A DNA stretch of 64,000 nt, from contig CAVUCC010000001.1 of NCBI GenBank assembly GCA_963739885.1, positions 206,516-270,515 of the forward strand, read 5' to 3'. The notes beneath the pieces are model-generated. The model was given only the letters and a program-made list of their open reading frames with translations. It did not search any database and was not told where the DNA came from. Source of the stretch: an uncultured Chloroflexia bacterium (GTDB taxonomy: Bacteria; Chloroflexota; Limnocylindria; Limnocylindrales; CSP1-4). This document shows positions 4,146 through 27,789 of the stretch, piece after piece. Made by a program: the position numbers and the translations under genes. Within the stretch, counting starts at the first letter, position 1; every line of letters starts with the position of its first letter.

Positions 4146-4161
4146 CGGACGGCGCCGGGCG

Positions 4162-4647: not shown

Positions 4648-4694
4648 GAGGATGACCTTGCCCTTTGCCCGCGGCTCGGTGCGGGAAACGGCGC

Positions 4695-7665: not shown

Positions 7666-7683
7666 CCGCGCTGGCACGTCGAA

Positions 7684-10362: not shown

Positions 10363-10464
10363 GCCACCTAGGATAGTCGACAGTTGCCAGGTGGCTATTA
10401 TCGGGCGGCTGAGTCCCCGCACGAGCCGGCGGCACGGCCGGTCGGATGCGATCGGACCAAGACG

Positions 10465-11547: not shown

Positions 11548-11578
11548 CGCGGGTTCTCCGTCGTCCGTCCCGGCCGGC

Positions 11579-12592
11579 TCACGGGAGCCGTCCCAGCCAC
11601 AGGAACGAGGTGCCGGCACCCACGACCAGCAGCAGCAGGCCGGCGCCCGCGAGGACCGAGGTCAGCTCGACAGGCTGCGGCTGGATCACCAGCCGCGGGT
11701 CGAGGTTCTCGTACACCGCATGCAGCTGGTCCGTGCTGTCGGCGGCGTAGTAGCTGCCGCCGGTAAGATCCGCGATCTGCCGGAGCAGGGCAGCATCCAG
11801 CTGCGTGTGCACCCGGAACCCGTTCAGGTCGAGATCTGCGCCAGCCTGGCTGCCGATGCCGACCGTGTCGATCCGGATGCCGGCGTCGGCGGCCGCCTGG
11901 GCGGCCCGGACCGGGTCCGGGTTCTCGTTGTTCTCGCCATCGGTCAGGAGCACGATGACCGCCGAGCCGTGGCTGCCCGGCGGCACCGGCGCCGGAGTGG
12001 GAGTCGGATCGGGCGCGGGCGAGCGGTTCGTGTAGTAGTCCACGTTGCCGCCCGACTCGGCGACCCGGATCGCGGTGAGCGACGACGTGATGCCCTGGGC
12101 GAGCGACGTCCCCTTCTCGGGGGACAGCCGGTCGATCGCGGCCAGCACGGCGGCCTGGTCGGTGGTCGGGACCTGGACCGAGAGGCCCGAGTCGCTGAAC
12201 GCGACCACGCCGATGGCGATGCCCGACGGCTGGCGCTTGACGAAGTCCGTGGCTGCCGCCTTGGCGGCGGCCATCCGCGAGGGCTGGAGGTCCGTCGCCG
12301 CCATGCTTCCGGACACGTCGAAGGCGAGCACGACCGTGCCCTGCTGGACGGGCAGGCCCAGCGTCGCCTGGGGTCGAGCCAGGGCGATCACCAGGACCAT
12401 CAGCCCCAGCAGGAACAGGCTGGCCGGGATCAGCGTCCGGCGGCCCGGACGGCGGCCGTCCGGCCGGTCCCTGTCGAGCCCGCCCAGCACACCGGCGCGG
12501 GCGCGGCGGCGGCGCCCGATCTCCGCATACAACCAGGCGCCCGCAGGGATGGCGAGCAGGAGCAGCAGCATCGGGGGCCAGATCAGCGCCAT
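11579..12592 (-). CDS. VWA-domain protein (BatA-like)
   Basis: MALIWPPMLLLLLAIP TM, then VLAFDVSGSMAATD MIDAS motif, VLLTDGENN and a C-terminal TM. The start overlaps the DUF58 stop. Confidence 0.75.
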   Translation of the reverse strand: MALIWPPMLLLLLAIPAGAWLYAEIGRRRRARAGVLGGLDRDRPDGRRPGRRTLIPASLFLLGLMVLVIALARPQATLGLPVQQGTVVLAFDVSGSMAATDLQPSRMAAAKAAATDFVKRQPSGIAIGVVAFSDSGLSVQVPTTDQAAVLAAIDRLSPEKGTSLAQGITSSLTAIRVAESGGNVDYYTNRSPAPDPTPTPAPVPPGSHGSAVIVLLTDGENNENPDPVRAAQAAADAGIRIDTVGIGSQAGADLDLNGFRVHTQLDAALLRQIADLTGGSYYAADSTDQLHAVYENLDPRLVIQPQPVELTSVLAGAGLLLLVVGAGTSFLWLGRLP

Positions 12593-12594
12593 CG

Positions 12595-13500
12595 CTACCG
12601 CCTCGCCGCCGCCGGCGCGGGTGCCCTGCGGCGACGTAGCTCGGCCATCCGCACGATGGCGCGCACCAGGTCGTCGTCGGTGGACAGGGCAAGCGCCTCG
12701 ACCCCCGACCGCGCGAACGCGCGACGCACATCCCCCTCGCGCTGCGCGGTCGCCGCGGCGAATCGCCGCCGGAATGCGCCGTCTGAGGTGTCGACGTACA
12801 GCTGCTCTCCGGTCTCGGCGTCCTGCATGATCAGCGGCCCGGCGTCTGGCAGCTCCATCTCGCGCGGATCGAGCAGCCGGACCGCGACCACCTCGTGGCG
12901 CCGGTTGAGCAGGTTGAGCGGCCGCTCCCAGCCGGGCGCGCTGATGAAGTCCGAGACCACGAACACGAGCGAGCGACGCCGGATCGACGCCCGGGCGGCA
13001 TCGAGCAGCGGCGCCAGGTCGGTGAACGGGCGCGGCCGGCAGCATCGGCTGCGCGAGCAGATCGTTGACCAGGCGCAGCACCTGCCGCCGGCCACCGCCG
13101 GCCGGGATCGTGCGCTCCACCCGGCTCCCGTACACGACCGCGCCCACGCGATTGCCACGGCGCGTCAAGAGCCGGGCCAGCGTGGCCACGAAGTCGATCA
13201 GGACGGTGCGCTTCTGACGCTCGCCGTCAACCGTGCCGAAGTCCACCGACGGGCTGAGGTCGAGCAGGAACCACGCGGTCAGGTCGCGGTCCTCGAGGTA
13301 CTCGCGGACATACGGCTCGTCAAGACGGGCGGTGACGTTCCAGTCGATGTACCGGACGTCGTCGCCGGGCTGGTACTCGCGCAGGTCCGCGAGATCCACC
13401 CCGTTGCCGTACAGCAGGCTGCGGTAGTCGCCCTGGAGCAGGCCGTCCAGCCGGCGGACGACCTGCCAGTCGAGGCGCTGGAGGATGCGCTCAGGCGCTG
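12595..13500 (-). pseudogene. DUF58-domain protein (MoxR-associated), frameshift near 13040; 5' end approximate
   Basis: N-terminal GDYRSLLYGNGVDLADLREYQPGDDVRYIDWNVTAR lies in the frame of ORF 11579-13399. The C-terminal part (SLVFVVSDFISAPGW...) lies in the frame of ORF 12595-13158. Confidence 0.7.
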
Positions 13501-14510
13501 ACGCGACCGTCGGTCGACTCCCTGAGGGGCACGACGGGTGCCGGAACTCGGGCCAGGATGGTGGTCAGGATGTCGTCGCTGGTGACGTTGTCCGAGAGGG
13601 CCTCGAACGACAGCACCAGGCGATGGCGGATGACGTCGCGGGCCATGTCGTAGACGTCCTGGGGCAGCACGTAATCCCGGCCGCGGACGAACGCCAGCGC
13701 ACGAGCGGTGAGGATCAGGTTGATCGACGCCCGGGGGCTGGCGCCGTAGGTGATGTACCGCTCGAGCTCGGGCATGCCGGCAGCCCTGGTCATGCGCGTC
13801 GACGTCGCCAACCGGACCGCGTAGTCGATCAGCGAGGGGTCCACGTAGACCCGATCCGTCTCCTGCTGGAGGCGGACGAGGTCATCGGTCGTAAGCACCT
13901 CGGCGATGCGTTCGGCCGGGCCCGTCTGGCGCTCGACGATCACGAACTCCTCGTTGCGGGTCGGGTAGCCGACCAGGACCTTGAGCATGAACCGGTCCAC
14001 CTGCGCCTCGGGCAGGGCGTAGGTGCCCTCGGTCTCGATCGGGTTCTGGGTGGCCAGGACGAGGAACGGCTCGGGCACGTGATGCGTCTCGCGGCCGATC
14101 GTGACCTGGCGCTCCTGCATCACCTCGAGCAGCGCGCTCTGGACCTTGGCCGGCGCCCGATTGATCTCGTCCGCGAGCAGGAGGTTGGTGAACACCGGAC
14201 CCAGCGACGTGTTGAACTCACCCGTCTTCTGGTTGTAGATGCGGGTGCCGATGAGGTCCGCGGGGACCAGGTCCGGCGTGAACTGGATCCGCTTGAACTC
14301 ACCACCGATCGAGGCCGCCAGCGTCTTGATCGCCATCGTCTTGGCCAGGCCCGGCACGCCCTCCACGAGGAGGTGGCCGCGCGCCAGGAGGGCCACGACC
14401 ATCCGCTCGAGCAGGTGATCCTGGCCGACGATCACCTTCTTGACCTCGTACAGGACGCGCTCCATCGGCGCGGCGCGGGCCACCGTCACGTCCTGGTCCA
14501 TCGGCATCAC
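13491..14510 (-). CDS. MoxR-family AAA+ ATPase
   Basis: Walker A (GVPGLAKT), Walker B (LLADEINRAPAKVQSALLEVMQERQVT) and the MoxR C-terminal lid are present. Confidence 0.9.
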   Translation of the reverse strand: MMPMDQDVTVARAAPMERVLYEVKKVIVGQDHLLERMVVALLARGHLLVEGVPGLAKTMAIKTLAASIGGEFKRIQFTPDLVPADLIGTRIYNQKTGEFNTSLGPVFTNLLLADEINRAPAKVQSALLEVMQERQVTIGRETHHVPEPFLVLATQNPIETEGTYALPEAQVDRFMLKVLVGYPTRNEEFVIVERQTGPAERIAEVLTTDDLVRLQQETDRVYVDPSLIDYAVRLATSTRMTRAAGMPELERYITYGASPRASINLILTARALAFVRGRDYVLPQDVYDMARDVIRHRLVLSFEALSDNVTSDDILTTILARVPAPVVPLRESTDGRVSA

Positions 14511-14517
14511 CTCCCGG

Positions 14518-15390
14518 CTAGTACTGGGGCAGGCCGGCCGCGCCGCCTGCCACGTCGATCGGTACGGCGAGGCCGATCCCGACGAACACGTCTTCCTTGG
14601 TGGGGTTGATGAGCGCGGCCACGATGCCGATCACCCTGCCGTTGGCGTCGAGCAGGGGCCCGCCCGAGTTGCCGGGGTTGACGGCGGCATCCACCTGGAT
14701 CAGGCCGCTCAGGACCTGGCCGCTGTCGGGGAGCGTGAACGAGCGATCCAGGCCGGACACGATGCCAGAGCTCATCGACCCGTACAGCCCGAACGGGTTG
14801 CCGACCACGAATGCCTGGCTACCGACGCGGACGGATCTCGGGTCGCCGAGCACAGCCGGCTGCAGGACCGACGGCGGCTGATCCGGCTGGAGCACCGCGA
14901 TGTCGGAGTCCGGCTGGCGGCTGGCGATCGAGGCGGTCGATTGCGACCCGTCGGCAAACGTGACCTCGATGCCGGTGGCGCCGTCGACCACGTGCAGGCT
15001 GGTCAGGATCTCACCCGCGTCGTCGACGACGACGCCGCTGCCGAGCGATGCGTCGCCGGAGTCGGACCCACGCTGGGCGTGAACCAGCACCAGTGATGGC
15101 TGGATCTGCTCGTAGGCGACCGCGGACAGCGGTGGGGCGGGGGTCACGGAGGCGAGCGCGCTGGCGATTGCGTCGTTGACGTCGGCCCGGTCGAGCTGCG
15201 GCGGTCCGGGCACGAGGGTGTTGTAGCCAGCGATCGCGATCAGCGCCGCGGCCAAACCCGCGACGAACAGGCCGGCGCTCCGCGCGCTCGGGCGGCGCCG
15301 GCGCCGACGGCGAACGGGTGGCCCTGGGTGCAGCTCGGCAAGGCCCCACGGCCGGGTCGGGCCATCCGGTGGGATCTGAGGATTTGGCAT
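14518..15390 (-). CDS. trypsin-like serine protease (S1C/HtrA-like, no PDZ domain), membrane anchored
   Basis: N-terminal TM, catalytic His (TSLHVV), Asp (DIAVL) and Ser (GNSGGPLLD) motifs. Start at MPNPQIP (15390). Confidence 0.75.
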   Translation of the reverse strand: MPNPQIPPDGPTRPWGLAELHPGPPVRRRRRRRPSARSAGLFVAGLAAALIAIAGYNTLVPGPPQLDRADVNDAIASALASVTPAPPLSAVAYEQIQPSLVLVHAQRGSDSGDASLGSGVVVDDAGEILTSLHVVDGATGIEVTFADGSQSTASIASRQPDSDIAVLQPDQPPSVLQPAVLGDPRSVRVGSQAFVVGNPFGLYGSMSSGIVSGLDRSFTLPDSGQVLSGLIQVDAAVNPGNSGGPLLDANGRVIGIVAALINPTKEDVFVGIGLAVPIDVAGGAAGLPQY

Positions 15391-15473
15391 GCCACCCGGC
15401 TGCCGGGTGAATGGGGAGCCGTCGATCGGGCTGCCTCCGTCCGGTCGTGGAGCGCCGGGCAAGTCTGCATGCC

Positions 15474-15488
15474 GTTCCTGAAAGGAAC
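15474..15488. promoter_or_regulatory. perfect palindrome GTTCCTGAAAGGAAC in the divergent intergenic region between the protease and the LuxR regulator; candidate operator
   Basis: A GTTCC-N5-GGAAC inverted repeat read directly from the sequence. It lies about 85 bp from the protease start and 330 bp from the regulator start. Confidence 0.35.
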
Positions 15489-15814
15489 ATGACAGCCCAT
15501 TCCAGCCGTTCGGACGCCGGTGCGGAGCCTGCACCGACCGCCCCACCGAACCTGTGCCCCTCACCGCGCCGATGGGTGTGCGGGCGACCCCCACGGCCGT
15601 GGGGGCCCCCGACCCCACGCGCGTCGCCCTGACACCTAACCTCCGTTGCCCGAATCCCCACCCGTGTTCCCGAGCTTCGGCACGAGGGTGCCCCATCGAG
15701 CCCCCTGTCGTGTCTGGTGATCGCTCCGACCCGGGGGCACCATCGACCCACACGGGACGCAGAAGCCGCCAACGAGGCCCCAGCAGGCGTCGACGGACGG
15801 CGGGAGGACAGGCA

Positions 15815-16885
15815 ATGCAGCTATCGCAGCTCACCGAGGACCTGGCACTGCTGCTGCCGATCGTGATCCTCGTCGAGGGGATCATCGGCATCGTCGCCTG
15901 GTTCTGGTACGGATCCAGGGGCGGGCGCGGTGCGCGCGTTGCAACCTGGCTGGGCCTCGTCACCCTCACCCTGTGGGTCGGCTCGGCCGCCGCGTTCGTG
16001 CTCCTCCACCTGCTGTACTTCACGTTCGGCTCGGCCGCCACCATCCTCGGCGCGATCGTCGTCACGGCGCTGATGCTGCTGATGCCGTTCGCCTGGGCCG
16101 CCGTCATTCGCCACCAGGGCACGGCGACGGCCCGGCCCGCAGGCGCGTTGAGCGCCGGATGCCGGCGATGCCCACCTCGCAAGCGTCGCGCGACCGGACC
16201 GCAGGCGGAGGCGGACCAGCTCTCGGTGCTGCTCGCCATCGTCGACTTCCCGATGCTCGGCAGCGCGTTCCGCTCGCTCATCGAGCGTGAGCCAGATCTC
16301 CGGGTCGCGGGCGAGGTCGAGACCCGCGACGACCTCGTCGCCCAGGTCAGGAGCACTCGGCCGGACGTCCTGGTCACCGAGTGCGCGCCGTTCGGGGGTC
16401 TCGGCTGCCCGACCTTCGAGACCCTGGAGCAGATCCACGACGAGTGTCCGGAGACGCGGATCATCGCCCTCGACTGCCGGTGCGCCGCGGAGCAGTTCTC
16501 CGTCGCGTTGAAGGCGGGAGCCAACGGCTACCTGACCCGCGAGGCCACCGACACCGACGTCCTGGTCGCGATCCGGAGCGTGGCCGCCGGTCACACCTAC
16601 GTCAGCCCCGCGATCGTGACCCGGATGATCGACACCTATGTGCGGCGGACGCCGGATGCCACGTTCGAGGACCCGTACGACACGTTGACCGCTCGCGAGC
16701 GCGAGATCCTGCTGCTGGCCGCGATGGGCCACACCAATCGCGACATCGCCCGATCGTTGAAGCTCTCCGACCAGACCGTCCATTCCCATCGCGCGAGCGT
16801 GATGGAGAAGCTGGGGCTCCACGACCGCGTCGAGCTGCTCCGCTACTGCGTCCGGCGCGGCATCCTCAACCCCTCGACCCTGTGA
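15815..16885 (+). CDS. membrane-anchored LuxR/NarL-family regulator with an atypical receiver domain
   Basis: Four N-terminal TM helices, then a REC-like domain in which the expected phospho-acceptor position reads DVLVTEC (Glu, not Asp), then a LuxR HTH (LTAREREILLLAAMGHTNRDIARSLKLSDQTVHSHRASVMEKLG). SD-like GGGAGGA sits upstream of the ATG. Confidence 0.7.
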   Translation: MQLSQLTEDLALLLPIVILVEGIIGIVAWFWYGSRGGRGARVATWLGLVTLTLWVGSAAAFVLLHLLYFTFGSAATILGAIVVTALMLLMPFAWAAVIRHQGTATARPAGALSAGCRRCPPRKRRATGPQAEADQLSVLLAIVDFPMLGSAFRSLIEREPDLRVAGEVETRDDLVAQVRSTRPDVLVTECAPFGGLGCPTFETLEQIHDECPETRIIALDCRCAAEQFSVALKAGANGYLTREATDTDVLVAIRSVAAGHTYVSPAIVTRMIDTYVRRTPDATFEDPYDTLTAREREILLLAAMGHTNRDIARSLKLSDQTVHSHRASVMEKLGLHDRVELLRYCVRRGILNPSTL

Positions 16886-17565
16886 ACGTGGTCGATCGCC
16901 TGCGCGCCTTCTGGGCGAGCGTTCGGCCGCGCACCCGACGGGGACGCGCGCTCGCAATCGCAGGCGTGCTCGGGGGGTCGGTGCTGATGTCGGCCGTCCT
17001 GTTCGCGGGCGCCGTGATGGCCTGGTCTCCGTATCTCGACTTCAGCCTCCATCGCGACGTGAACGCACGGTCGTGGGCCGTGCTGGACGTCTCGTTCGCG
17101 AGCTCGTCGACCTGCGCGCGGTGCCATGCGACCGAGGCACAGCGGCTGACCGGCGGAAGTCACGCCGACATCGGCTGCCAGAGCTGCCACGGCCCGCTGC
17201 AGGCACACGTGGCCGCGGGCGATCAGGCGGGCAGCGACACGGTGGCGGTGGCGGTGCCCACCGACGAGGTGTGCACGCGGTGCCACGTCGCCGCCGAGGG
17301 GCGCCCGGCCAGCCAGGCGCAGATCATCCCGACGGAGCACTACGTCGTGCAGTGCCTCCAGTGCCACGACCCACACACCGCGATCGCGGAGCGACCCCCA
17401 GTGGTCGAGCACCCGCTGGACGGCCTGCCGCCCTGCCTGACCTGCCACGGACCCGAGGGGTTCAAGGCCCGCAACGAGCGCCACCCGATCGTCCCCGACG
17501 ACGAGGGATGCCTCAACTGCCACGCGCCGGGCCGGGGCCCGGACCAGCTCACGGTGTCGCCATGA
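16882..17565 (+). CDS. membrane-anchored hexahaem c-type cytochrome
   Basis: GTG start overlapping the upstream stop (GTGA). An N-terminal TM helix is followed by six CxxCH motifs (CARCH, CQSCH, CTRCH, CLQCH, CLTCH, CLNCH) in 227 aa. Confidence 0.7.
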   Translation: MNVVDRLRAFWASVRPRTRRGRALAIAGVLGGSVLMSAVLFAGAVMAWSPYLDFSLHRDVNARSWAVLDVSFASSSTCARCHATEAQRLTGGSHADIGCQSCHGPLQAHVAAGDQAGSDTVAVAVPTDEVCTRCHVAAEGRPASQAQIIPTEHYVVQCLQCHDPHTAIAERPPVVEHPLDGLPPCLTCHGPEGFKARNERHPIVPDDEGCLNCHAPGRGPDQLTVSP

Positions 17566-18019
17566 GCGAGCGGATCGAACGCGTTGAGGAGCCGGCGGCC
17601 GACGCCGGCGTGCGCGCGACCGAGGACCCGATGATCGTCGGGCAGGCGGACGCCGCGGTCGAGTCCGAGCCGGCGGCCGACGCCGCACAGGCCCCGGAGA
17701 TCGCCGAGGTCGAGCCCGTGACCGAGCCCGTCGCGATGGCCCCGACCGAACAGCCAGCCGAAGCCGAAGCCGAAGCCGAAGCCGAAGCCGAAGCCGAAGC
17801 CGAAGCCGAAGCCGAAGCCGAGCCCGAGCCGAAGCCGAAGCCGAAGCCGAAGCCCCGGAGATGGTCGCCGAGCCGGCCCCCGCCGTCATGGCGGAGGCGA
17901 TGCCCGTCGCGGACGAGGAGCCGGACATCGCGGCCATCGGACCGGCGCCGGCCGAGGCCGTCGATCCCGCGTCCCTGGTGCCCCTCGACGAGATCGCTCC
18001 GGCGATCGTCAGCGCCTCC
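17562..18019 (+). other. acidic low-complexity ORF containing an (AE)n(PK)n repeat; reads through, after a frameshift near 17855, into the Fe-S protein
   Basis: ATGA overlap with the cytochrome stop. Begins MSERIERVEEPAADAG... and ends ...AEAEAEAEAEPEPKPKPKP. An in-frame continuation (MVAEPAPAVMAEAMPVADEEPDIAAIGPAPAEAVDP...) exists in another frame with no stop before the Tat motif. Confidence 0.4.
17758..17853. repeat. hexanucleotide tandem repeat (GCCGAA)n, about 16 units, inside a coding region
   Basis: Directly visible: gccgaagccgaagccgaa... then gagcccgagccgaagccgaagccgaag. Confidence 0.9.
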
Positions 18020-18723
18020 ATGAGCCGCCGTGCGTTCCTCGGGTTCGGGCTGATCATGGCCGGCGGTGTGGCGGGTGCGGCGGGCCTGTCCCGGCTGTTC
18101 CCGGTGTTCGACGAGTCGGCGGATGCGCCGAGCCCGATCGTCCCGACCTACGACCCCGCCGACAAGGCGTGGACGTTCGTCGTCGACACCGCCTCCTGCA
18201 TTGGCTGCGGCCTGTGCGTGGTCGCCTGCAAGGAGGAGAACCACGTCGCCGAGGAGGCCGCAGTACACCCGGACCTGGGTCGAGCGCCACGTGATCACCG
18301 CGGACGGTGACCTGTTCGTCGACTCGCCCGAGGCCGGCATGTACGGCTTCCCCGCCGAGTCGACCGCCCCGGGCGCGGCCGGCAAGGCCGTCGACGCCTC
18401 GTTCTTCGAGCCTCGCCTGTGCATGCAGTGCGAGGACTCGCCGTGCACGGCGGTGTGCCCCGTCGGCGCCACCTACCGGACCGAGGACGGCGTGATCCTG
18501 GTCGACGCTCAGCCGCTGCATCGGCTGCGGATACTGCGTGGTCGCGTGCCCCTACGGCGCGCGCTACATGACGCCCGCCGGCGGCGACAACCCCAACGAC
18601 ATGCCCGGCGTCGCCGACAAGTGCACCTGGTGCTACCACCGGATCAGCCGAGGCGCCCAGCCCGCGTGCGTCGAGGTGTGCCCGGTCGGTGCCCGCCGGT
18701 TCGGTGACGCCAGCGACCCGTAA
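18020..18723 (+). pseudogene. Tat-signal 4Fe-4S ferredoxin-type subunit (NrfC/PsrB/DmsB-like), split over three frames
   Basis: [23 protein letters not shown] twin-arginine motif. [15 protein letters not shown] is in frame 2, [17 protein letters not shown] in frame 0, and [18 protein letters not shown]...[30 protein letters not shown] in frame 1. Frameshifts near 18255 and 18510, the latter an extra C in cagCcgctgcatc. Confidence 0.7.
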
Positions 18724-18836
18724 CAGCGAGCATCGCCACGCTCGTCCGCCAGCGTGCCCCCAAGCAGCTCCATCCCGAGTACGGCACCCGGCCGCGCGTG
18801 CTCTACCTCGGCCCAGCCATCGAGGAGGCCTGAGGA

Positions 18837-20100
18837 TGCAGGCGACCGGTCTGACCCTCACGCTCGGCGGACCGTCGTCCCGATCGGACCGCGCGCCGCC
18901 GGCCGCGCGCTCGCGCGCGAGGTCGCGGCGATGTCGCTCGCGCTGCGCCTGTGGCTGGCGGGCCTGTCCGCCGTGATCGCGCGTCGGCGCGGTGGCCGCG
19001 CTGATCGCCCTGCCGCCCGGCTGGGAGGTATTCGGGACCAGCCCCAGCTTCGAGTGGGGGCTGCTGATCGTGGGCTACGTGTTCTTTGCCGTGATGACGA
19101 GCGGGCTGTGTCTCGCGTCGTCGCTGGGCACCGTGTTCGGGATCGAGCGGTTCCGGCCCCTCGAGAAGCGCGCACGCAGTGCTCGCCCTGCTCAGCCTCA
19201 CCACCGCGTTCGGGATCATCGCGCTCGACCTCCACTATCCGGTCCGGATGGTGTTCGGCGCCGTGCTCGTCCCCTCGCCCACCTCGCCCATGTGGTGGAT
19301 GGGCGTGTGTTACGGCATCTACCTGGTCGTGCTCCTGGTCGAGGTGTGGAGCATGTTCAGCCACCACCCCAGGATCCACCAGTACGCATGCACGGCGGCG
19401 ACGTGCGTGGCCGTGGTCGCGCCGTCAACGCTCGGCGCGGTGTTCGGGGTGCTCGCCGCCAAGGCGTTCTGGAACGGCCCGTTCACGGTGCTGATGATGG
19501 TCGGCGCGGCGTACCTGGCCGGGACCTCGCTGCTCGGCCTGGTGTTCTACGCCGTCTCCCGTCTGGGTCTCCAGGACCACGAGCGGGCGCGCCTGGAGGC
19601 GATCCCGTCGATCCGGCCAGCTGATCACGATCGCGCTGGTGATCGTGATGGTTCTGCTGGCCCGCCAGGTGGTCGTCGGGCTGCTGGCCGATGATCGCGG
19701 GCTGCGCGAGGCGACGTCGCCTTGGTCACGGGGCCGCTGGCGCCGCCTTCTGGCTGCGGGTCGTGGTCGGGCTCGCGCTGCCGCTGGTGCTGGTGCTGCT
19801 GCCGATGACGCGCACGCCGGCCGGCCTGTGTCGCGGCGAGCGTGCTCGTCCCTGGGCGGGGTGTTCCTGGATCGCTACCTGTTCGTGACCGCCGGTCAGA
19901 TCGTGCCTGCCACCGCCCATGCCGGCGCGGTGTCCAGCCCGTATGCCTCGTACATGCCGTCGCCGGTCGAGCTGGCGATCATCGCCGGCGCGGTCGCGTT
20001 CGTCGCCCTCGGCTACACGCTCGCCGAGCGCTACCTCGACCTGCGCCAGGAGCCCGATCACATGAACTGGGCGTGGCCGTGGCTGCCACGACCACGAGGC
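18837..20100 (+). pseudogene. NrfD/PsrC-family polytopic membrane quinol-interacting subunit, fragmented by 5 or more frameshifts; boundaries approximate
   Basis: Recognisable NrfD-like segments in alternating frames: MSLALRLWLAGLSAVIA; FEWGLLIVGYVFFAVMTSGLCLASSLGTVFGIERFRPLEKRA; LALLSLTTAFGIIALDLHYPVRMVFGAVLVP...GAAYLAGTSLLGLVFYAVSRLG; LITIALVIVMVLLARQVVVGLLADD; GPLAAAFWLRVVVGLALPLVLVLLPMTRTPAGL; LGGVFLDRYLFVTAGQIVPA. A GAGGAGG SD precedes the ATG at 18837. Confidence 0.55.
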
Positions 20101-20124
20101 CCTCGGCGAGGCGGAGGCAGAGGC

Positions 20125-20769
20125 ATGAACCGGCCGCCGTCGCCCGCTACTGGTTCCCGGCCGTCGGTCATCGCGCTGGTGGGGCGATCGCATCTCGCCG
20201 CATTCCTCCTGGTCGTCGCCGTGCCTGACCTCTCGAGCCGGCGGCGACATCTCGGCGCCGACCGCGACGCCGGCGCGCCGGCGGCGACCCCGACCCCGCT
20301 CTCGCCCATGGCCAACTCGCCGGTCGGGGATCCAGATGGCGGCCAATGCGGACTGCTCCGCCTGCCACGTCACCACCAACGGCACCGTGGGCACGAAGAA
20401 CATCCCGGTGATGGCCCACCCGCTGTGGGGCTGGCGAAACTGCACCGCCTGCCACACGACCGGCAGCCTCGTGTCCACGGCGCCTGGCCACTCCGGTCTC
20501 CACAAGGACGATTGCCTGGTGTGCCACAAGGCCCCGGACGCCGACTCGGCAGCGAGCAACCCGCCGCTCCGGCCCGAGCACATGGGCTACACCGAGCCAT
20601 GCACGTCGTGCCACGGCCAGGACCAGCACGCCCCGCTGCCCGATTCGATGAAGGGCCGGGGGACAACTGCTGGATCTGCCACAACGGCCCCGAGTTCACC
20701 TACCTGTTCAACGAGGACGGCTCGCCCAGCCCGGTGCCCCCGTCCCCAGCGGCGGCCGGCGCGGGCTGA
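20125..20769 (+). pseudogene. membrane-anchored pentahaem c-type cytochrome (NrfB/ActA-like), 2 frameshifts
   Basis: SD GGAGG plus ATG at 20125, then a TM helix (HLAAFLLVVAVP). CSACH, CTACH, CLVCH and CTSCH are in frame 2 (20336-20650). CWICH with the C-terminus is in frame 1, stop at 20769. Confidence 0.6.
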
Positions 20770-20789
20770 CGGCTGCGCGCACCGGCGCC

Positions 20790-21011
20790 GGCGCGTACCA
20801 GAAGGCGTACGGGCAGCTGCTGTCCAAGACGAGCACCGAGTGGGCGCCCTGGTACGTGATCCCGGCCGACCACAAGTGGTTCATGCGGGTCGCGGTGTCG
20901 GCCGCCATCCTGTCCGCTCTCATCGACCTCGATCCGCAGTTCCCCGAGCCCACCAGGGCCGAGCGCGAGGAGATGCTCATGACCAGGGACGAGCTGCTCG
21001 CCGAAGGCTGA
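20790..21011 (+). pseudogene. 3'-terminal fragment of a polyphosphate kinase 2 (PPK2) gene
   Basis: Frame-0 translation AYQKAYGQLLSKTSTEWAPWYVIPADHKWFMRVAVSAAILSALIDLDPQFPEP...AEG* matches the conserved PPK2 C-terminus. No N-terminal two-thirds is present. Confidence 0.6.
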
Positions 21012-21026
21012 GCCGGCGGAGGTGAG

Positions 21027-21593
21027 ATGGGCATAGGGGCAGACTCGAGAGGCGAAGCTCCCGTCGCGGCATGGGCGACCCTCGCCCTGGCGGTCGCGAT
21101 CCCGCTCGGCCTCGTGGCGCTCGCGTCGGCGCTGGGGTGGGTCAGCGACCAGGTGGTGGTCATCGGCCCCTTCGACCGCGCGTCCTTCGGCTGGGTCGTG
21201 GTCGTCTCGCTCTGGCTCTCGGCGCCCGTGGTCGCAGGGTTCGTCTGGCGACGGCTTCCACCGGCCACCAGCCTGGCCCCCGCCCTCGTCCTGTGGGTCA
21301 TCGTCGCCGGCGTGGCAACCATCCTGCTGTGGCTGGCCGTGGCGTTCCCCGATTGTCCAGGCGGTGCGAACCGCACGCCGATCGAATGGGTCACACCGTC
21401 GCTCGTTGTTGGCGTCCTGGTCGGCGCCGCCGTCGGCGTGAGCGGTCTCATCGCCGAGCGAATCGTGCGCGGCGGTCATCCATGGTGGGCCGTCATCATC
21501 GGCGCCGGCAACGCGGCGGTCATGCTCCTCGCGGCGCTCATGATCGCAGCCATGACGGTGCTCGCGGTGCCAGCGTGCCAACGGTCAGTCTGA
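21027..21593 (+). CDS. hypothetical integral membrane protein (about 5 TM)
   Basis: 188-aa ORF with multiple hydrophobic helices. No known motif. Confidence 0.45.
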   Translation: MGIGADSRGEAPVAAWATLALAVAIPLGLVALASALGWVSDQVVVIGPFDRASFGWVVVVSLWLSAPVVAGFVWRRLPPATSLAPALVLWVIVAGVATILLWLAVAFPDCPGGANRTPIEWVTPSLVVGVLVGAAVGVSGLIAERIVRGGHPWWAVIIGAGNAAVMLLAALMIAAMTVLAVPACQRSV

Positions 21594-21636
21594 AGCCAGC
21601 CCGATCGACCCCTTCGCGGCGCCGGCTCGCTGGGGC

Positions 21637-22086
21637 ATGATGGGGGCCGTCATGGACAGCACACCCGGCGCACCCCGGTACAGCCTCCTGCGCGACCTGA
21701 TCGCGCTGGTCGTGGTCGTGGTGGCGTGCCCGGCCGCCCTGTTCGGCGGCTCGATGCTGGGCTGCGTGGGTCAGGGATTCAATCCCGCCTGCGCCATGAA
21801 CGCGATCGTCATCTCGCCGATCCTGCTGCTCGCCTCCGGCCTCGTCGCCGGGCTGTTGTCGCGCGGCTGGACGGGGCTGCTGATCACCTTCGTGGCCACC
21901 GTGATCGGGATGATCACGATCCTGCTCCTGTCGTTCGGCGTGGGCGAGGCGGTCCCGGTGGACCCGATCTCCGGGGTGCTGGCGACGATCTGGTTCTACG
22001 CCCCGGTGGCGATCGGCTATGGAGCCGGGCGCCTGGTGTGGCGTCTGTTCGAAACGCGCGGGGCGGGCGGCCCGAACGGATCCTGA
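21637..22086 (+). CDS. hypothetical integral membrane protein (about 4 TM)
   Basis: 149-aa ORF with hydrophobic helices. Confidence 0.45.
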   Translation: MMGAVMDSTPGAPRYSLLRDLIALVVVVVACPAALFGGSMLGCVGQGFNPACAMNAIVISPILLLASGLVAGLLSRGWTGLLITFVATVIGMITILLLSFGVGEAVPVDPISGVLATIWFYAPVAIGYGAGRLVWRLFETRGAGGPNGS

Positions 22087-22143
22087 GCCGGAGCCGAGCG
22101 GGACGCGGGCGCAGCCGTCGGCTGGCGCTGGCTCGTCGTCAGG

Positions 22144-23358
22144 TCAGGCCACGCGCTCCTCCGGAGGCCGGAGCCGCCGGAACGAGCGGTACAGCAGCAG
22201 GTCGTAGACGATCTTGAGGCCGCCCGAGACGAGGAACGGCAGGCTGGCGAGCGCGACGGTCGCGAACATCGGGCCGGCCAGCAGCGGCGCCGTGGCGACC
22301 CCCAGCGACCGGGCGATGCCGGTCACCCCGGCCGCGGCCGATCGTTCGTCGGGCGCCACGATCGCCATCGTGTAGCTCTGGCGCGTGGGCACGTCCATCT
22401 GGCTGATCGAGAAGCGGGCGAGCAGGAACGCAACCGCGAGCGGCAGCGTCGGCATCAGCGGGACCAGCATCAGCAGCACGTTCGACGGCAGGTGGGTGAA
22501 CACCATCGTGCGCACCAGCCCGAAGCGGGCCGCGAGCCGGCCCGCCGGCGAGCGCCGAGAACCCGGCCAGCGAGGTTCGCGCCGGCCAGCACGAGCCCGA
22601 TGGTCGCCGGGTCCATGCCGAACCGCTGGTGGAACCAGAAGGCGATGAACGACTGGATGGCAAAGCCGCCGGCGAACGCGTCGAGCGCGAACAGCGCCGA
22701 GAGCCGGAGCACGACGCCCGCGCGACTGGTGCAGTCCGAGGCGGTCGCGGATCCGCGGCGTCGTGGACCGTGGCGGGCGGCCACCTCCACGCGCGCCGAC
22801 ACGCTCGAGAACAGCAGCGCGAGCAGGACAGCCGACCAACGCATAGCCGACGATCACGTATCGGTAGGCATCGGCTTCGCTCGCCCCGCCGGCGATCGCC
22901 GCCTGCGACAACGCGCCACCCGCGAGCGTGCCCACCGCGGTGGCCAGCGATCCCGCCAGCTGGTACCGGGCGAACAGGCTCGTTCGGCGGCGGTCCGGGA
23001 CCAGCTGCGAGAGCGAGGCCTGCTCGACCGCCAGGAACGGGCCGATCTCGTTGCCGCTGGGGCTGATGACGCCGAACGTCGCGGCCACCAGCAGGATCGC
23101 GAACACGGGCGTCGCGACGAACACCAGCCCGGCGACGAGCATCAGCCCCGCGCCCGCGAGCAGCACACGACGCCGGCCGACCCGATCGGCGTGGGTGGTC
23201 AGCCACAGCGAGACGCCCGCGTCACCCAGCAGCGTCAGCGCGAGCAGCAGCCCGATCTCGGCACCCGAGAGCCCGATCGCATCCAGGTACAGGACGAGCA
23301 CGACGGCCAGGAACCCGTAGCCGAACATGCGCAGGATCCGGGTCGCGAACAGCAGCAC
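22144..23358 (-). pseudogene. MFS transporter with two compensating frameshifts (near 22860 and 22560)
   Basis: N- and C-terminal halves are in one frame with a garbled middle. The true middle segment (LRLSALFALDAFAGGFAIQSFIAFWFHQRFGMDPATIGLVLAGANLAG) lies in ORF 22470-22844 in a different frame. Confidence 0.65.
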
Positions 23359-23476
23359 GATGTCGGCCCGGTCGGTGGTCCCCGGAGGGCCCGGCGATGC
23401 GGCGGTCGGCGATGCGGCGGTCGGCGATGCGGACGCGGTGTGCCGGACTCCGGTCGCCTCGATGGCCCCGACACGG

Positions 23477-24706
23477 TCAGGCGCGCCCGCGCGCGAGGTC
23501 GATCAGCCGGCCGAGCACGCGCTCCCCGTCGGCCCGCAGGCCGTTGTGCTGGTACTCGTTGGTGATCCAGGGCCGCAGCCCACGAACCGCGACAGCCGTC
23601 TCCTCCGCGAACGCCCGCTCGACGTACAGGTCGTCCACGTAGATCGTGGCCGCGACCGGGACCTCGTTGCGGGCCAGCTGATCCGCATCGTAGAGGTGCG
23701 GCCAGACGTGCTCCGCGATCAGATCCGCCGCCTCGCGATGGGGTCGGAGCAGCCCGTAATCCTCGAACATCCATGGGAACACGTGCTCCGCCGTGAACGC
23801 CTCGGTCGTGGCGATCTCGTCGGGCAGCAGCCGGTGAGCCGACCAGCGGGTCGCCACGCCGTCCGCATACGACGACTCGTGGAGCGTCGCGTACAGCGGG
23901 TTGCGGGTGAACCGGACGCCTCCCTCGACGTCGTGCAGGAAGGCGGGCGAGCCAAATGGCAGCTCGATGACGTGATGGAGCAGCTCGAACCCGGCGCTGT
24001 CACCCAGCCACAGGCCCAGCTGCCGGAAGCGGCGCACGGTGAGCCGGTCGCCCGACGGCAGGCGGACGTCCTCGTCCTCGAGCCGCCGGTGGATCTCCCG
24101 GACCCGGTTGCGGTCGTCGGGGTAGCGGTCGAAGTAGCGGCGGTTGGCCTCGATCAGGCGCCGGTACGTCGCGCCGTAGATGTCGTCCACCGGGCGGCCG
24201 ATGGGTGACAGCCCACCGGTGAGGAACGCCTCGCGCAGCCCCTCGGGCGCGATCGAGAGGTAGCTCAGGCTGGTGAAGCCACCAAAGCTCTGGCCGAGCA
24301 CGCTCCATCGCTCGACGCCCAGCTCGCGACGGATCGCCTCGGCGTCGCGCACGATCGAGTCGGCCCGGAGATGGGTGAGGTACTCGGCCTGGGCGGCGGA
24401 GTCGTCGCCCGGGATCGCCGGTCCGACCGGCGTCGAGCGGCCCGTGCCTCGCTGGTCGAGCAGGAGCACCCGGAAGTCGCGCAGGGCCCGCGCCATCCAG
24501 CCCGACGGCGGGCTGGTGGGTCGGGCGGCCTCGAAGCCCGGCCCTCCCTGGAGGAACACCAGGTACGGCCGGTCCGTGCCGTCGGGCGCGGCGACCTCGC
24601 GCGTGAACACCGTGATCGATGGCCCGTCCGGCCGGGCGTGGTCGAGCGGCAGCCGGTGCTCGCGCTCGGTGAGGATCGCCCCTGGAACCTGATACGTGAC
24701 GCTCAT
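23477..24706 (-). CDS. pip: prolyl aminopeptidase / proline iminopeptidase (S33 alpha/beta hydrolase)
   Basis: LVFLQGGPGFEA, LLLDQRGTGRS and the nucleophile elbow GQSFGG. Confidence 0.8.
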   Translation of the reverse strand: MSVTYQVPGAILTEREHRLPLDHARPDGPSITVFTREVAAPDGTDRPYLVFLQGGPGFEAARPTSPPSGWMARALRDFRVLLLDQRGTGRSTPVGPAIPGDDSAAQAEYLTHLRADSIVRDAEAIRRELGVERWSVLGQSFGGFTSLSYLSIAPEGLREAFLTGGLSPIGRPVDDIYGATYRRLIEANRRYFDRYPDDRNRVREIHRRLEDEDVRLPSGDRLTVRRFRQLGLWLGDSAGFELLHHVIELPFGSPAFLHDVEGGVRFTRNPLYATLHESSYADGVATRWSAHRLLPDEIATTEAFTAEHVFPWMFEDYGLLRPHREAADLIAEHVWPHLYDADQLARNEVPVAATIYVDDLYVERAFAEETAVAVRGLRPWITNEYQHNGLRADGERVLGRLIDLARGRA

Positions 24707-24798
24707 GTGTTGCACGATAGCGGCTCGCCGGCCGTCACTCACCGCATGTGCCGCCGGTGGCTGGTCCGGCCAGGACCGCCGCGGCCGGCGCGCCGCGC

Positions 24799-25782
24799 CT
24801 ACCAGCGCTGATGGACGAGCGGCTTGACACGAGCCTCGTACAGGGCGCGGATCCGGTCCATCGTCTCGGGCGGCAGCGGCGGCAGGTCGGCGGCGAGCGC
24901 GTTGGACCGGGCCTGCTCCGGTGTGCGGGCGCCGGGGATCGTGGTGCTGACCCCGTCATGGGCGAGGATCCAGCGCAACGCCATCTGGGCCATCGTCGCG
25001 CCCGCCGGGACGAGCGCCCTGAGCTCCTCGACCACCTCGAGGCCGGTCTGGTAGTCGACACCGGCGAACGTCTCTCCGGCATCGAACGACTCGCCGTGGC
25101 GGTTGAACGCGCGGTGGTCGTCCGCCTCGAACGCGGTGTCGCGGCGCAGCTTGCCCGTCAGCAGCCCCGAGGCCAGCGGCACCCGCACCAGGACGCCGAT
25201 GTCGTGCCGGGCCGCCTCCGCCAGGAACCGGTCTGCCGGGCGCTGGCGAAAGATGTTGAAGATGATCTGGACCGTGGCGACACCCGGGAGCTCGATCGCC
25301 TTGAGCGCCTCCTCCACCTTCTCCACGCTCACCCCGTAGGCCGCGATCGCCCCCGCCGCCACCAGCTCGTCGAGCGCCGCGAACACCTCGGGCTGGTAGT
25401 AGACCTGGGTCGGCAGACAGTGGAGCTGGATGAGGTCGAGGCGGTCGACGCCGAGGTTCTCGCGACTTCGATCGACCCAGCCGCGGAAGGCCTCGGGCGT
25501 GTAGCTCGCCATGTCCAGCGGAGCGTCGCGTCCCATCTTGGTGGCCACCAGGAACGCCTCACCCGGACGCTCCCGCAGGAACCGGCCGATCAGGCGCTCG
25601 CTGTGGCCGTCACCGTATACATCGGCGGTATCGAACAGGGTGACACCGGCATCCGCCGCCGCGTGCAGAGCGCGCAGGCTGGTGGCGTCATCGACGCTGC
25701 CCCACGACCCACCGATGGCCCACGCCCCGAATCCGATCACGCTGACGTCCCGCCCGGTCCTGCCGAGGCGCCGATGCTCCAT
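24799..25782 (-). CDS. aldo/keto reductase
   Basis: MEHRRLGRTGRDVSVIGFGAWAIGG...FDTADVYGDGHSERLIG is an AKR signature. Confidence 0.85.
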   Translation of the reverse strand: MEHRRLGRTGRDVSVIGFGAWAIGGSWGSVDDATSLRALHAAADAGVTLFDTADVYGDGHSERLIGRFLRERPGEAFLVATKMGRDAPLDMASYTPEAFRGWVDRSRENLGVDRLDLIQLHCLPTQVYYQPEVFAALDELVAAGAIAAYGVSVEKVEEALKAIELPGVATVQIIFNIFRQRPADRFLAEAARHDIGVLVRVPLASGLLTGKLRRDTAFEADDHRAFNRHGESFDAGETFAGVDYQTGLEVVEELRALVPAGATMAQMALRWILAHDGVSTTIPGARTPEQARSNALAADLPPLPPETMDRIRALYEARVKPLVHQRW

Positions 25783-25895
25783 CGCTTGGCACTCCCGTTG
25801 CCGCGGCTGCCGCCGTGTCGTCCGGACGGATCGCCGCCTACCGCCAGCCTATCCCGTGCGACGCACGTTCCGTGCCGCGGGCTGCCCTGGCACGA

Positions 25896-25925
25896 GAAGA
25901 CCCCGTCGGCTGGACGGGGCCTTCT
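25896..25925. terminator. GC-rich hairpin downstream of mmsA (minus strand)
   Basis: agaccccgtcggctggacggggcc, an inverted repeat ccccgtc/gacgggg. Confidence 0.35.
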
Positions 25926-25982
25926 CGCTTGCTGCCGGCCGTCAGCGTGGCCGGTTGGGCAGTCGGGCTGGGCTGACCTCGA

Positions 25983-27527: not shown

Positions 27528-27789
27528 CTGTTGCCTCCTGCTGCTGGCGGTGGTCAGGGCGCGGGGACGCGGCCGCGCACGGATCCGTGGGTGCTCGCGG
27601 CACGATCCATCGATGCTCGCCTGCCTCGGCCGGAGCCGGTAGGTCCGGAGGGCGTGCGCGGGACGTGCTGGACGGACTACCCGGGCCAGTCGTGACCACC
27701 GGCCCTACCCGATCGCCCGGCTCTCGCCGGAGCCTGAGGTCTTTCCAGCAGCGTCGGCGTTCGCCGCCGTCCAACGGAGGATCCGCCCA

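Follow-up and report, generated by a model that had tools for sequence, protein, structure and literature searches.

The 64-kb stretch of DNA analysed here (the window) carries, more than 15 kb from each end and on the + strand, a module of four structural genes encoding a hexahaem cytochrome c, an Fe-S subunit, an NrfD-like membrane subunit and a pentahaem cytochrome c, with start and stop codons overlapping between the module genes. When all six frames of the window are considered, 11 of its 15 CxxCH motifs fall in the two cytochrome genes. The hexahaem cytochrome (16882..17565, 227 aa) is intact, with six CxxCH motifs, six invariant distal His residues and an N-terminal TM helix. It is 100% identical in seven other contigs (L083-L089) and has 438 homologues at 56-93% identity, and its best curated matches are the DmsE/MtrA-type and GSU2203-type decahaem families. 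Its structure prediction was unsuccessful (pLDDT 60), which was counted against the explanation preferred below. The pentahaem cytochrome (20125..20769, 215 aa; Cytochrome_C7, 2.6e-9) contains five CxxCH motifs, split over two frames in the window (indels at 20133-20325 and 20658), and a Pro/Ala/Thr-rich linker between its TM anchor and haem domain. Its distal His residues are invariant in an alignment of 29 orthologues, and the intact sequences P0450 and P0452 equal the window protein residue for residue across the C-terminal two thirds. Hydropathy analysis gave both cytochromes single N-terminal TM anchors and Arg-rich N-termini, in agreement with the membrane-anchored 6-haem and 5-haem cytochromes c described in an earlier, sequence-only reading of this DNA.

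The Fe-S subunit (17562..18833, ~422 aa when intact) matches Fer4_11 (6.5e-21) and PsrB (2vpw_B, 1.7e-42), and all 16 of its 16 cluster cysteines are present. The intact sequence was taken from L086; in the window, the gene has indels at 17827, 18260, 18511, 18723 and 18731. The protein consists of an acidic Pro/Ala/Glu-rich N-terminal extension with an (EA)n repeat, the sequence motif LVPLDEIAPAI, a hydrophobic segment with the twin-arginine signature SRRAFLG, and a core with four [4Fe-4S] clusters, and a hexanucleotide repeat lies at 17756-17854 of the gene. The acidic region had previously been taken for an ORF of its own, bringing the unit to five genes. Since its start codon overlaps the hexahaem stop codon and its GC3 is coding-like, a separate acidic gene was rejected: the region forms the 5' portion of the Fe-S gene, and the structural genes number four. 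Judged by its sequence, the protein is PsrB/DsrO-like and resembles PsrB, TtrB and NrfC, as the NrfC/PsrB-like assignment made earlier implied, with scores of 180 bits against DsrO (cut-off 200) and 131 bits against NrfC (cut-off 378). The twin-arginine motif lies 27-200 residues from the N-terminus, an unusual place for a Tat export signal; hence the topology of this subunit is one that we infer.

The NrfD-like integral membrane subunit (18836..20128, 427 aa) has 10 predicted TM helices and matches PF03916 (3.4e-24), consistent with the NrfD/PsrC-like polytopic protein proposed before and, together with the Fer4_11 match, with a module of multihaem cytochromes and NrfC/NrfD-type proteins. Its best NCBIfam matches, QrcD and DsrP, are full-length and far under the cut-offs, and no sequence match to solved NrfD-like chains was detectable. 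The top Foldseek matches of its AF2 model (pLDDT 77) are ActC chains of alternative complex III (ACIII) (6btm_C, 8k9e_C, 6lod_C and 6f0k_C; TM ~0.70), suggesting that the subunit resembles ActC. In the window, this gene has at least 12 indels and a mosaic 3' half, and positions 19400-20090 are closest to L006.

Altogether, ~30 small indels interrupt the Fe-S, NrfD and pentahaem genes in the window. The copy as given would encode truncated proteins. Every one of the window indels is absent from L083-L089, which derive from seven other samples and have 99.5-100% flank identity, and in the same population four contigs from short-read metagenomes carry all genes intact. Most isolated indels, among them every one in the Fe-S core and MFS genes, are +1 insertions that do not lengthen a base run, and the isolated indels coincide with two stretches where mismatches are locally frequent, one of them closest to another species. 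Were the three genes true pseudogenes of a decaying module, one would point to the 25 or more indels that disrupt the frame between 17.8 and 20.7 kb, to the real deletion that took most of the adjacent polyphosphate kinase 2 (PPK2) gene, and to the somewhat raised window-specific N/S (0.66, vs 0.38 in neighbouring genes). However, the flanks differ by ~0.3% from the intact contigs, leaving no time for ~30 indels to build up, and the PPK2 deletion is also present in contigs with an intact module. Like indels also strike the DUF58, MFS, CLC and regulator genes, only insertions occur in the Fe-S core and MFS genes, and most isolated indels extend no base run, a pattern unlike natural deletion-biased slippage. 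The N/S is far under the neutral value of ~2.7, and the cysteine motifs, haem motifs and GC3 signal are all kept. We regard decay as very unlikely; by comparison with independent contigs in which the genes are intact, the frameshifts are almost certainly consensus errors of the assembly and not biology. Frame-corrected genes had been called for in the sequence-only reading, and the near-identical contigs encode all genes intact, with the cysteine and haem motifs preserved.

The module is preceded by genes for a small 3-4 TM membrane protein (+ strand, 15815..16150; hydropathy; 111 aa in relatives) and a LuxR/NarL-type regulator with an aspartate-less (pseudo) receiver (+ strand, 16165..16885; 238 aa in relatives). 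The small membrane protein has no Pfam or NCBIfam match and is a separate gene of 109-131 aa in 45 relatives and in L083, L084 and L086-L089. The regulator matches GerE (1.6e-18) and, weakly, Response_reg (28.7 bits, under the gathering score); it is NarL/UvrY-like along its full length, yet far under the cut-offs. The absence of the phospho-acceptor Asp, already remarked on, is a family-wide trait, with E, A or Y at this position in 29 orthologues. The two genes had been read as one membrane-tethered 4-TM LuxR regulator. In the window, the small membrane protein does run into the regulator through indels at 16117-16201, and such a fusion is seen only in the window and in L002; 57 relatives and contigs with 99.6% identity encode the 111-aa and 238-aa proteins as two genes. 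A tethered regulator was rejected as an artefact of window-only indels. The protein shares the GerE helix-turn-helix and a receiver-like domain with Asp replaced by Glu/Ala/Tyr with atypical (aspartate-less) NarL/FixJ-family response regulators, but is here always paired with the upstream small 3-4 TM protein gene and has no adjacent histidine kinase. The regulator, which would be phosphorylation-independent, and the small membrane protein probably control expression of the module. The adjoining regulator was counted as pointing to conditional, not housekeeping, use.

With 93% identity between the window and a Limnocylindria MAG, the sequence places its source in Limnocylindria (Ellin6529, Chloroflexota) and not among actinobacteria. 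Limnocylindria is an uncultured class from soil and freshwater. The module is found in ~75 species-level genomes of this class in the strict order small membrane protein, regulator, 6-haem, Fe-S, NrfD, 5-haem, and it is under purifying selection (omega 0.06-0.26); a four-gene version occurs in one Actinomycetota MAG. Hence neither the high-GC actinobacterial setting nor the rarity attributed to such modules was borne out. Outside the module, immediately downstream, is the 3' remnant of the PPK2 gene (+ strand, 20770..21011; PF03976, profile positions 179-224 only). Relative to L001, it has a 746-nt deletion between GCGCCGGC-type microhomologies; the remnant is a 51-aa ORF in L086-L089, and the deletion is common to the population. 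A truncated PPK2 gene had been recognised, correctly, and is a C-terminal fragment, but its use as a sign of insertion fails. The truncation is a deletion inside an otherwise conserved neighbourhood, the flanks are syntenic in relatives, and no tRNA genes were found across the whole window; acquisition as an inserted block was rejected.

The window contains neither a molybdopterin nor an NrfA-type gene and lacks CxxCK motifs, and neither ten annotated contexts nor the recurrent neighbours yielded a catalytic gene, so that the lack of such a partner reported for the immediate surroundings extends to these contexts. DsrMKJ, QrcB, ActB1, ActD-F, NrfA and molybdopterin genes were likewise absent from the ten annotated contexts and the conserved neighbours, and no subunit reached a curated equivalog cut-off. 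These results argue against the module being the membrane-anchor part of a canonical nrf/psr/ttr/dsr/qrc/act system with its catalytic subunit elsewhere, as does its distance from either window end. The Fe-S subunit, close to DsrO in score and similar to PsrB, TtrB and NrfC, speaks for such an anchor, which we nevertheless consider highly improbable. The module is not a canonical nrf, psr, ttr or act operon, the case that the sequence-only reading had named as its own refutation.

ACIII is a quinol:cytochrome c oxidoreductase found in Chloroflexota. Like ActABCDEF, the module combines an N-terminally anchored multihaem cytochrome, an Fe-S protein, a 10-TM NrfD-like subunit and a further cytochrome in parallel order. 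The predicted fold of its membrane subunit is closest to ActC, as compared with four ACIII structures, and both of its termini are predicted to be cytoplasmic, as in ActC. However, it has a low-complexity acidic tail of 27-200 aa instead of the molybdopterin-like ActB1 domain, and lacks a second NrfD-like subunit (ActF), ActD and the monohaem ActE. Its cytochromes are hexahaem and pentahaem, compared with pentahaem and monohaem in ACIII, and its Fe-S core is nearer PsrB/DsrO (1.7e-42) than ActB (~1e-20). A profile search with the hexahaem cytochrome did not find ActA, and the pentahaem cytochrome matched 6btm_A only at E = 0.017.

NrfBCD and NetBCD, the latter an inner-membrane quinol dehydrogenase for Mtr (PMC8805035), likewise join a multihaem cytochrome, a Tat-type four-cluster Fe-S protein and an NrfD-family subunit for menaquinol oxidation with a separate acceptor. 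In contrast to the module, with 10 ActC-like TM helices and two membrane-anchored cytochromes (6 + 5 haems), NrfD and NetD have 8 TM helices, NrfB and NetB are soluble pentahaems, and the NrfA or MtrCAB partner is absent here. A NetBCD/CymA-like quinol dehydrogenase feeding insoluble Fe(III)/Mn(IV) or humics directly from the cell surface would fit the total of eleven haems, carried by two membrane-tethered cytochromes whose linkers and tails are flexible and Pro/Ala-rich, the decahaem families matched by the hexahaem protein, a monoderm host abundant in anoxic fens, and the lack of an enzymatic partner encoded nearby. Yet both cytochromes are small proteins, and one of 215 aa is unlikely to span the cell wall on its own; the neighbourhood has no larger cell-wall-spanning or surface cytochromes, and freshwater and oxic-soil members have the module too. 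Such a direct extracellular conduit is possible, though unlikely.

QrcABCD, NhcABCD and DsrMKJOP also contain a multihaem cytochrome c, an Fe-S protein (QrcC, NhcB, DsrO) and a 10-TM NrfD-like subunit (QrcD, NhcC, DsrP), and their redox sites all face outwards, as proposed for the module. The best NCBIfam matches (DsrO, QrcD and DsrP) are all under curated cut-offs, and QrcB and DsrMKJ, the partners looked for, are absent here. Whereas those systems belong to sulfate reducers, the host lineage is aerobe/denitrifier-type Chloroflexota without dissimilatory sulfate reduction, and the gene for the membrane subunit is followed by one for a second cytochrome, a pentahaem. The parallel of cytochrome, Fe-S and 10-TM NrfD with Qrc and Nhc (PMC8076601), the full-length though far sub-threshold QrcD and DsrP matches, and the view that NrfD-type modules are reversible would suit a Qrc-like quinone reductase. 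In it, menaquinone would be reduced electrogenically with electrons that the surface cytochromes take from extracytoplasmic donors, for instance Fe(II), reduced humics or a dehydrogenase that is secreted or periplasm-like. However, a donor enzyme is not encoded nearby, a QrcB-like molybdopterin-type subunit is absent, and the hosts are mostly (facultative) aerobes whose cytochrome c oxidases need a quinol-to-cytochrome c link, making this reverse direction quite unlikely.

The best explanation, in which we place moderate confidence as a whole, is that the module is a native, vertically inherited, four-subunit respiratory unit of Limnocylindria (Ellin6529) and most likely a menaquinol dehydrogenase passing electrons via Fe-S clusters and 11 haems to a cell-surface partner. 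A quinone-linked route to the outer side of the membrane is a reasonable form of the electron-transfer conduit suggested from the sequence. Ellin6529 bacteria are monoderm, nearly all have cytochrome c oxidases, and their MAGs carry coxABC, cydAB and nirK (10.1101/2020.12.21.419267; 10.1101/2021.08.23.457424). We hypothesize that menaquinol docks on the outer side of the membrane to the NrfD/ActC-like subunit, which has 10 helices and no cofactor, and that electrons would pass to the Tat-type four-[4Fe-4S] protein, which its uncleaved twin-arginine segment would retain at the membrane with the acidic tail in the cytoplasm. From there they may proceed to the membrane-anchored hexahaem cytochrome and the linker-tethered pentahaem cytochrome, which would deliver them to a partner on the surface of the monoderm cell, candidates being a terminal oxidase, NirK, NosZ or an external acceptor. 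The ActC-like fold suggests a possible coupling between proton movement and the quinol step.

Within the window, whose G+C content is ~72%, an intact ORF of 227 aa that encodes a single N-terminal TM helix and carries six CxxCH motifs (the hexahaem cytochrome; 16882-17565, +) is followed on the same strand by an acidic (EA)n region running into a ferredoxin-like, four-cluster protein that bears SRRAFLG, by an NrfD-family membrane protein, and by a gene, ending at 20769, whose product has a single TM helix plus five CxxCH motifs (the pentahaem cytochrome). Eleven of the 15 CxxCH motifs in the six frames of the whole 64 kb lie in the two cytochrome genes, and no CxxCK motif occurs in any of the six frames of the window. 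The HMM searches recommended in an earlier, sequence-only reading of this DNA returned two of the families it named, Fer4_11 (6.5e-21) and PF03916 (NrfD). On the frame-stitched window protein, PF03916 scored 86.5 bits (gathering score 25.8; E = 3.4e-24) and covered positions 3-312 of the 313 in the profile; the match is precomputed for all NrfD-like orthologues. The core of multihaem cytochromes, Fe-S protein and NrfD-type subunit described in that reading is thus real, as judged by ORFs, CxxCH counts and Pfam matches.

Reading frames were analysed with a GC3 frame plot and a Viterbi segmentation based on position-specific GC. The coding frame switches many times within the Fe-S, NrfD and pentahaem genes, and it also switches in DUF58, MFS, CLC and cation-exchanger-like genes; the part of the window from 24 to 64 kb is nearly free of such switches. 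Outside the module, one-base indels at 13031, 8641, 7546/7660, 22545-22830, 23440-23447 and 4140-5814 break genes for a DUF58 protein, a CLC channel, an F420H2-dependent quinone reductase-like protein, an MFS transporter and a cation-exchanger-like protein. Wherever L083 and L086, two contigs from the same population, give coverage, these outside-module indels are found in the window only. The first 24 kb of the window is of locally poor consensus quality.

Intact versions of the module were recovered from two sources: three Logan (SRA-run) contigs from other samples, found by exact-sequence look-up of the window hexahaem protein (L083-L085), and four JGI metagenome contigs of 14-20 kb (L086-L089), reached via cluster-mates of the NrfD protein of L001, a collinear Limnocylindria MAG locus. 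L086 aligns with window positions 10861-28133 and is 100% identical in the hexahaem gene, 99.5% in an abhydrolase gene and 99.6% in the 3' part of the pentahaem gene. None of its genes is broken: they encode a 111-aa membrane protein, a 238-aa regulator, the hexahaem (227 aa), Fe-S (410-430 aa), NrfD-like (427 aa) and pentahaem (215 aa) proteins and an MFS transporter of 402 aa. All of the ~50 gap events are peculiar to the window, and where L001, L083 and L084 span a gap site they read as L086 does. Every indel in the Fe-S core and the MFS gene is a +1 insertion that lengthens no run of bases, and so are most isolated ones elsewhere; indels co-localise with raised mismatch (~9% at 18034-20284, ~5% at 22168-23456). 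Within the NrfD gene, positions 19400-20090 are closest (95%) to a locus of another species (L006), with L086 and L001 absent among the matches listed (up to 80% identity). On either side, identity to L086 is 99.5-100%, a pattern that indicates either chimerism of the consensus or a recombination tract. The window-specific N/S is 0.66 in the three broken genes and 0.38 in neighbouring genes, against a neutral expectation of ~2.7. Since the flanks differ by ~0.3%, there has been too little time for 30 natural indels. The simplest reading is that the frameshifts arose because the consensus of a long-read metagenome assembly is poor here and mixes haplotypes. True pseudogenisation of the Fe-S, NrfD and pentahaem genes, at first taken seriously, was largely rejected once near-identical intact contigs were found, and we regard it as quite improbable. 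Exact-protein look-ups in short-read assemblies thus offer a way to resolve the 'pseudogene' patterns, rich in frameshifts, that occur in long-read MAGs.

Two corollaries of the artefact reading concern genes that had been described from the window alone. As read there, an ORF at 15815-16885 (+) joins N-terminal hydrophobic segments to a GerE/receiver-like regulator, which had been taken for a membrane-tethered LuxR protein; seven window indels at 16117-16201 create this fusion, and two separate genes are present in the same population. Likewise, the acidic ORF that had been counted as a gene of its own is the 5' part of the Fe-S gene, split off by an indel in a (GAAGCC)n hexanucleotide array (17756-17854) that encodes the (EA)n of the Fe-S N-extension. 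The Fe-S protein ranges from 410 to 430 aa among the near-identical contigs L086-L089, a spread that suggests repeat-length polymorphism.

Homologues of the hexahaem cytochrome number 438 (56-93% identity), and the closest (93%) lies in locus L001, on a 1.3-Mb MAG contig. In an exhaustive search of 1.84 billion representatives the family proved small, comprising 44 clusters (50% identity) at E <= 1e-30; the short homologues of ~150 aa returned by this search have just generic cytochrome c3/c7 Pfam matches. When one genome per GTDB species was scanned, ~75 loci were recovered, almost all labelled as uncultured Chloroflexia, Chloroflexota or Candidatus Limnocylindrales, labels that stand for class Limnocylindria (Ellin6529), and the NrfD homologues named by NCBI carry the same type of label. 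The host is therefore not a high-GC actinobacterium, as the sequence-only reading had supposed. Nearly all loci share one order: a membrane protein of 109-131 aa, a LuxR-type regulator of 233-242 aa, and the hexahaem, Fe-S, NrfD-like and pentahaem genes, with start and stop codons of successive genes frequently overlapping. In one Actinomycetota MAG the four structural genes are present and the regulator is missing. All six genes are under purifying selection (omega 0.06-0.26, L086 versus L001).

The cluster is autonomous. Its flanking genes vary by clade and are non-respiratory (abhydrolase, MFS, pyrimidine catabolism, permeases), and clustering of ~1,180 neighbouring ORFs from the ~75 loci gave no recurrent respiratory partner. 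The earlier statement that no catalytic gene lies nearby holds up in this larger set, in that molybdopterin, NrfA-like, hydrogenase and oxidase genes do not recur among the relatives' neighbours. In some MAGs, two paralogous copies of the whole module lie on different contigs (L031+L046, L045+L051, L043+L061). An apparent NrfD-pentahaem fusion of 686 aa with both PF03916 and PF14522 was seen in one relative (P0158; L038 11714-13777), as was a 641-aa 'pentahaem' protein in L051/L052 (13061-14983); they may be true fusions, which would support a physical association, or else frameshift artefacts of long-read MAGs.

Directly downstream of the pentahaem gene, only the last ~80 codons of a polyphosphate kinase 2 (PPK2) gene are present (20770-21011, +), a truncation that had been read as a trace of the module's acquisition as an inserted block. 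PPK2 is intact beside the module in L001, L006 and L009, and 746 nt are missing from the window copy between short GCGCCGGC-type repeats; PPK2 has thus suffered a deletion, and the cytochrome block was not inserted. The same remnant is present in L086 (a 51-aa ORF) and in L087-L089, and L008 likewise retains just a PPK2 fragment, which makes the position after the pentahaem gene look deletion-prone in this clade. Window 6966-26830 is matched collinearly by L001, whose genes are all intact, at ~93% nucleotide identity. There is no tRNA in the window, and Rfam and tRNA scans gave nothing within or beside the module. With the neighbourhood syntenic in relatives and the PPK2 damage accounted for by deletion, the idea of an inserted block is abandoned: the module is native to Limnocylindria and intact in nature.

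Several features elsewhere in the window were recorded. A PspC-domain protein followed by a sensor histidine kinase (Sensor, HisKA_3, HATPase_c; 861-2920, +) forms an envelope-stress-type pair unrelated to the module. An ORF of 1703 aa with an N-terminal hydrophobic segment (stop-to-stop 29491-34599, -) has a c-di-GMP-II-GCG riboswitch aptamer a short way upstream (RF03170; 34175-34263, -; 68 bits, gathering score 47.9). Hydrogenase maturation genes are grouped at 39206-44304 (-), including HypD and an AIR-synthase-fold ORF consistent with HypE (both Pfam-scanned) and HypC- and HypF-like ORFs assigned by eye; no structural hydrogenase gene was recognised within the window.

The NrfD-like protein has 427-564 aa and ten hydrophobic segments. 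Sequence and profile searches of all PDB chains with this subunit gave no match. Its AlphaFold2 model (pLDDT 77, pTM 0.79) superposes on ActC, ActF and PsrC, and the top four Foldseek hits are the ActC chains of four alternative complex III structures (E 6.5e-9 to 5.6e-8, TM 0.69-0.71), so that the predicted fold is nearest to ActC, then ActF, then PsrC. Among its invariant polar residues are H113, H133, R137, E169 and D346-R347, and the last pair might correspond to the Glu394-Arg395 gate listed for ActC (PMC8076601).

The translation start of the Fe-S gene sits at the hexahaem stop codon. The protein begins with a low-complexity, acidic, Pro/Ala/Glu-rich extension of 27-200 aa, which has a coding GC3 pattern and no Pfam domain. 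Its only conserved part is the motif LVPLEE(I/L)APAI, found right before the twin-arginine motif in essentially all orthologues (L003-L077; window ~17975-18030). A conserved SRRxFLG and hydrophobic stretch follow the extension, and then a core with 16 Cys in four groups, among them CTWC...CVEVCP, which together with Fer4_11 makes it a CISM-type four-cluster protein. The nearest matches of this core are PsrB (1.7e-42) and DsrO (180 bits; cut-off 200), with ActB farther (~1e-20). We infer that the protein is probably held by an uncleaved twin-arginine signal-anchor, with the acidic tail in the cytoplasm.

The hexahaem cytochrome has an Arg-rich N-terminus, one TM helix, six CxxCH motifs and six more invariant His; the pentahaem cytochrome has one TM helix, a Pro/Ala/Thr-rich linker of ~30 residues, five CxxCH motifs and a variable Pro/Ala/Ser tail. 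The CxxCH motifs are invariant in 75 hexahaem (six) and 29 pentahaem (five) orthologues, as are extra His residues; the intact genes retain all of these motifs, and the Fe-S gene its 16 Cys. Both are predicted multihaem c-type cytochromes, and the single N-terminal TM helix after an Arg-rich segment suggests an extracytoplasmic location. The best curated likenesses of the hexahaem protein are DmsE/MtrA-type and GSU2203-type decahaems and NrfB-like domains, none of which comes near its cut-off, and profiles of both cytochromes gave just marginal, generic multihaem matches to PDB chains. An AlphaFold2 model of the hexahaem protein from 75 sequences had pLDDT 60 and pTM 0.31 and was left out of the fold search. 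The regulator combines GerE with a receiver-like domain scoring below the Response_reg cut-off (28.7 versus 30.2); in 29 orthologues the phospho-acceptor position is E (most), A or Y, so the Asp at the end of beta-3 that marks the NarL/FixJ type is absent. A four-Cys metal/redox site in this pseudo-receiver was considered and dropped, as one Cys alone is nearly invariant.

No subunit of the module reached an NCBIfam equivalog cut-off, and catalytic or partner genes were not found near it, in keeping with the earlier view that this is not a canonical nrf, psr, ttr or act-type operon. In operon logic and membrane subunit, the closest system is alternative complex III, whose ten-TM ActC type is shared by the NrfD-like protein. 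However, alternative complex III needs a molybdopterin-like ActB1 fused to or paired with the Fe-S B2, of which there is none in the module or nearby; it has ActC plus ActF, ActD and the monohaem ActE, whereas the module has one NrfD-like gene, then the pentahaem gene, where the operon ends; and the module cytochromes are not detectably ActA-like. In function, NrfBCD and NetBCD (the latter in PMC8805035) are closest, as quinol dehydrogenases without a catalytic subunit of their own, but they use an eight-TM NrfD and a soluble pentahaem cytochrome. The module also differs from NrfABCD, having no CxxCK, an NrfC score of 131 bits against a cut-off of 377.6, and no NrfD equivalog match. Qrc, Nhc and Dsr share a cytochrome, an Fe-S protein and a ten-TM membrane subunit, but their further subunits are absent here; scores against cut-offs were 113/400 (QrcC), 39.6/570 (QrcD), 180/200 (DsrO) and 38.4/350 bits (DsrP), and no QrcB or DsrMKJ is encoded among the genes neighbouring the module in annotated contexts. 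A 2021 catalogue of NrfD-containing complexes lists no module of this composition (PMC8076601), and no description of it was found in literature on multihaem cytochromes, complex III, NrfD or NrfCD quinol dehydrogenases of Limnocylindria/Ellin6529. The module is genuine and conserved, and represents an uncharacterised variant among NrfD-anchored respiratory modules.

In NrfD-anchored modules, quinol binds close to the outer face, on a membrane subunit that has no cofactor and sits next to the four-cluster protein, and cytochromes c take the electrons onward (PMC8076601). Because the parts and their order match, an electron path can be proposed: menaquinol would be oxidised at the NrfD/ActC-like subunit, and electrons would travel by way of the four [4Fe-4S] clusters to the hexahaem, from there to the tethered pentahaem cytochrome and finally to a partner. 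The data show the subunit composition, the motifs, their conservation, the autonomy of the cluster and the ActC-like predicted fold; topology, direction of flow, any proton coupling and the partner are inferred. Cytochrome c oxidases, NirK and NosZ need a link from quinol to cytochrome c, which makes a complex-III-like role an attractive possibility. The hosts are monoderm, and nearly all encode cytochrome c oxidases, many also nirK and nosZ (10.1101/2020.12.21.419267, 10.1101/2021.08.23.457424). The module could be a stripped-down, ActC-based 'complex III' of Limnocylindria/Ellin6529, an unrecognised and possibly proton-translocating menaquinol:cytochrome c oxidoreductase feeding aa3 oxidase, NirK and NosZ, in which the tethered pentahaem replaces a soluble cytochrome c; we offer this as a speculative proposal that is rather unlikely to be correct. 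Delivery to an extracellular acceptor such as Fe(III) or humics, and reverse operation as a quinone reductase, are alternatives of fairly low probability.

Soils, fens and lakes harbour Limnocylindria (Ellin6529) in abundance, and in soil they rank among the most abundant uncultured lineages. To our knowledge the class has no cultured member, and we know of no description of how its quinone pool is linked to cytochrome c oxidases, denitrification enzymes or external acceptors. The module adds a further example of respiratory complexes assembled from the same building blocks, and would be of high importance only if it proves to be the complex III of this lineage or a new proton-translocating quinol:cytochrome c oxidoreductase. 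Being class-wide, under purifying selection, in no curated family and missing from the 2021 catalogue, it is a concrete candidate for the quinone-pool link.
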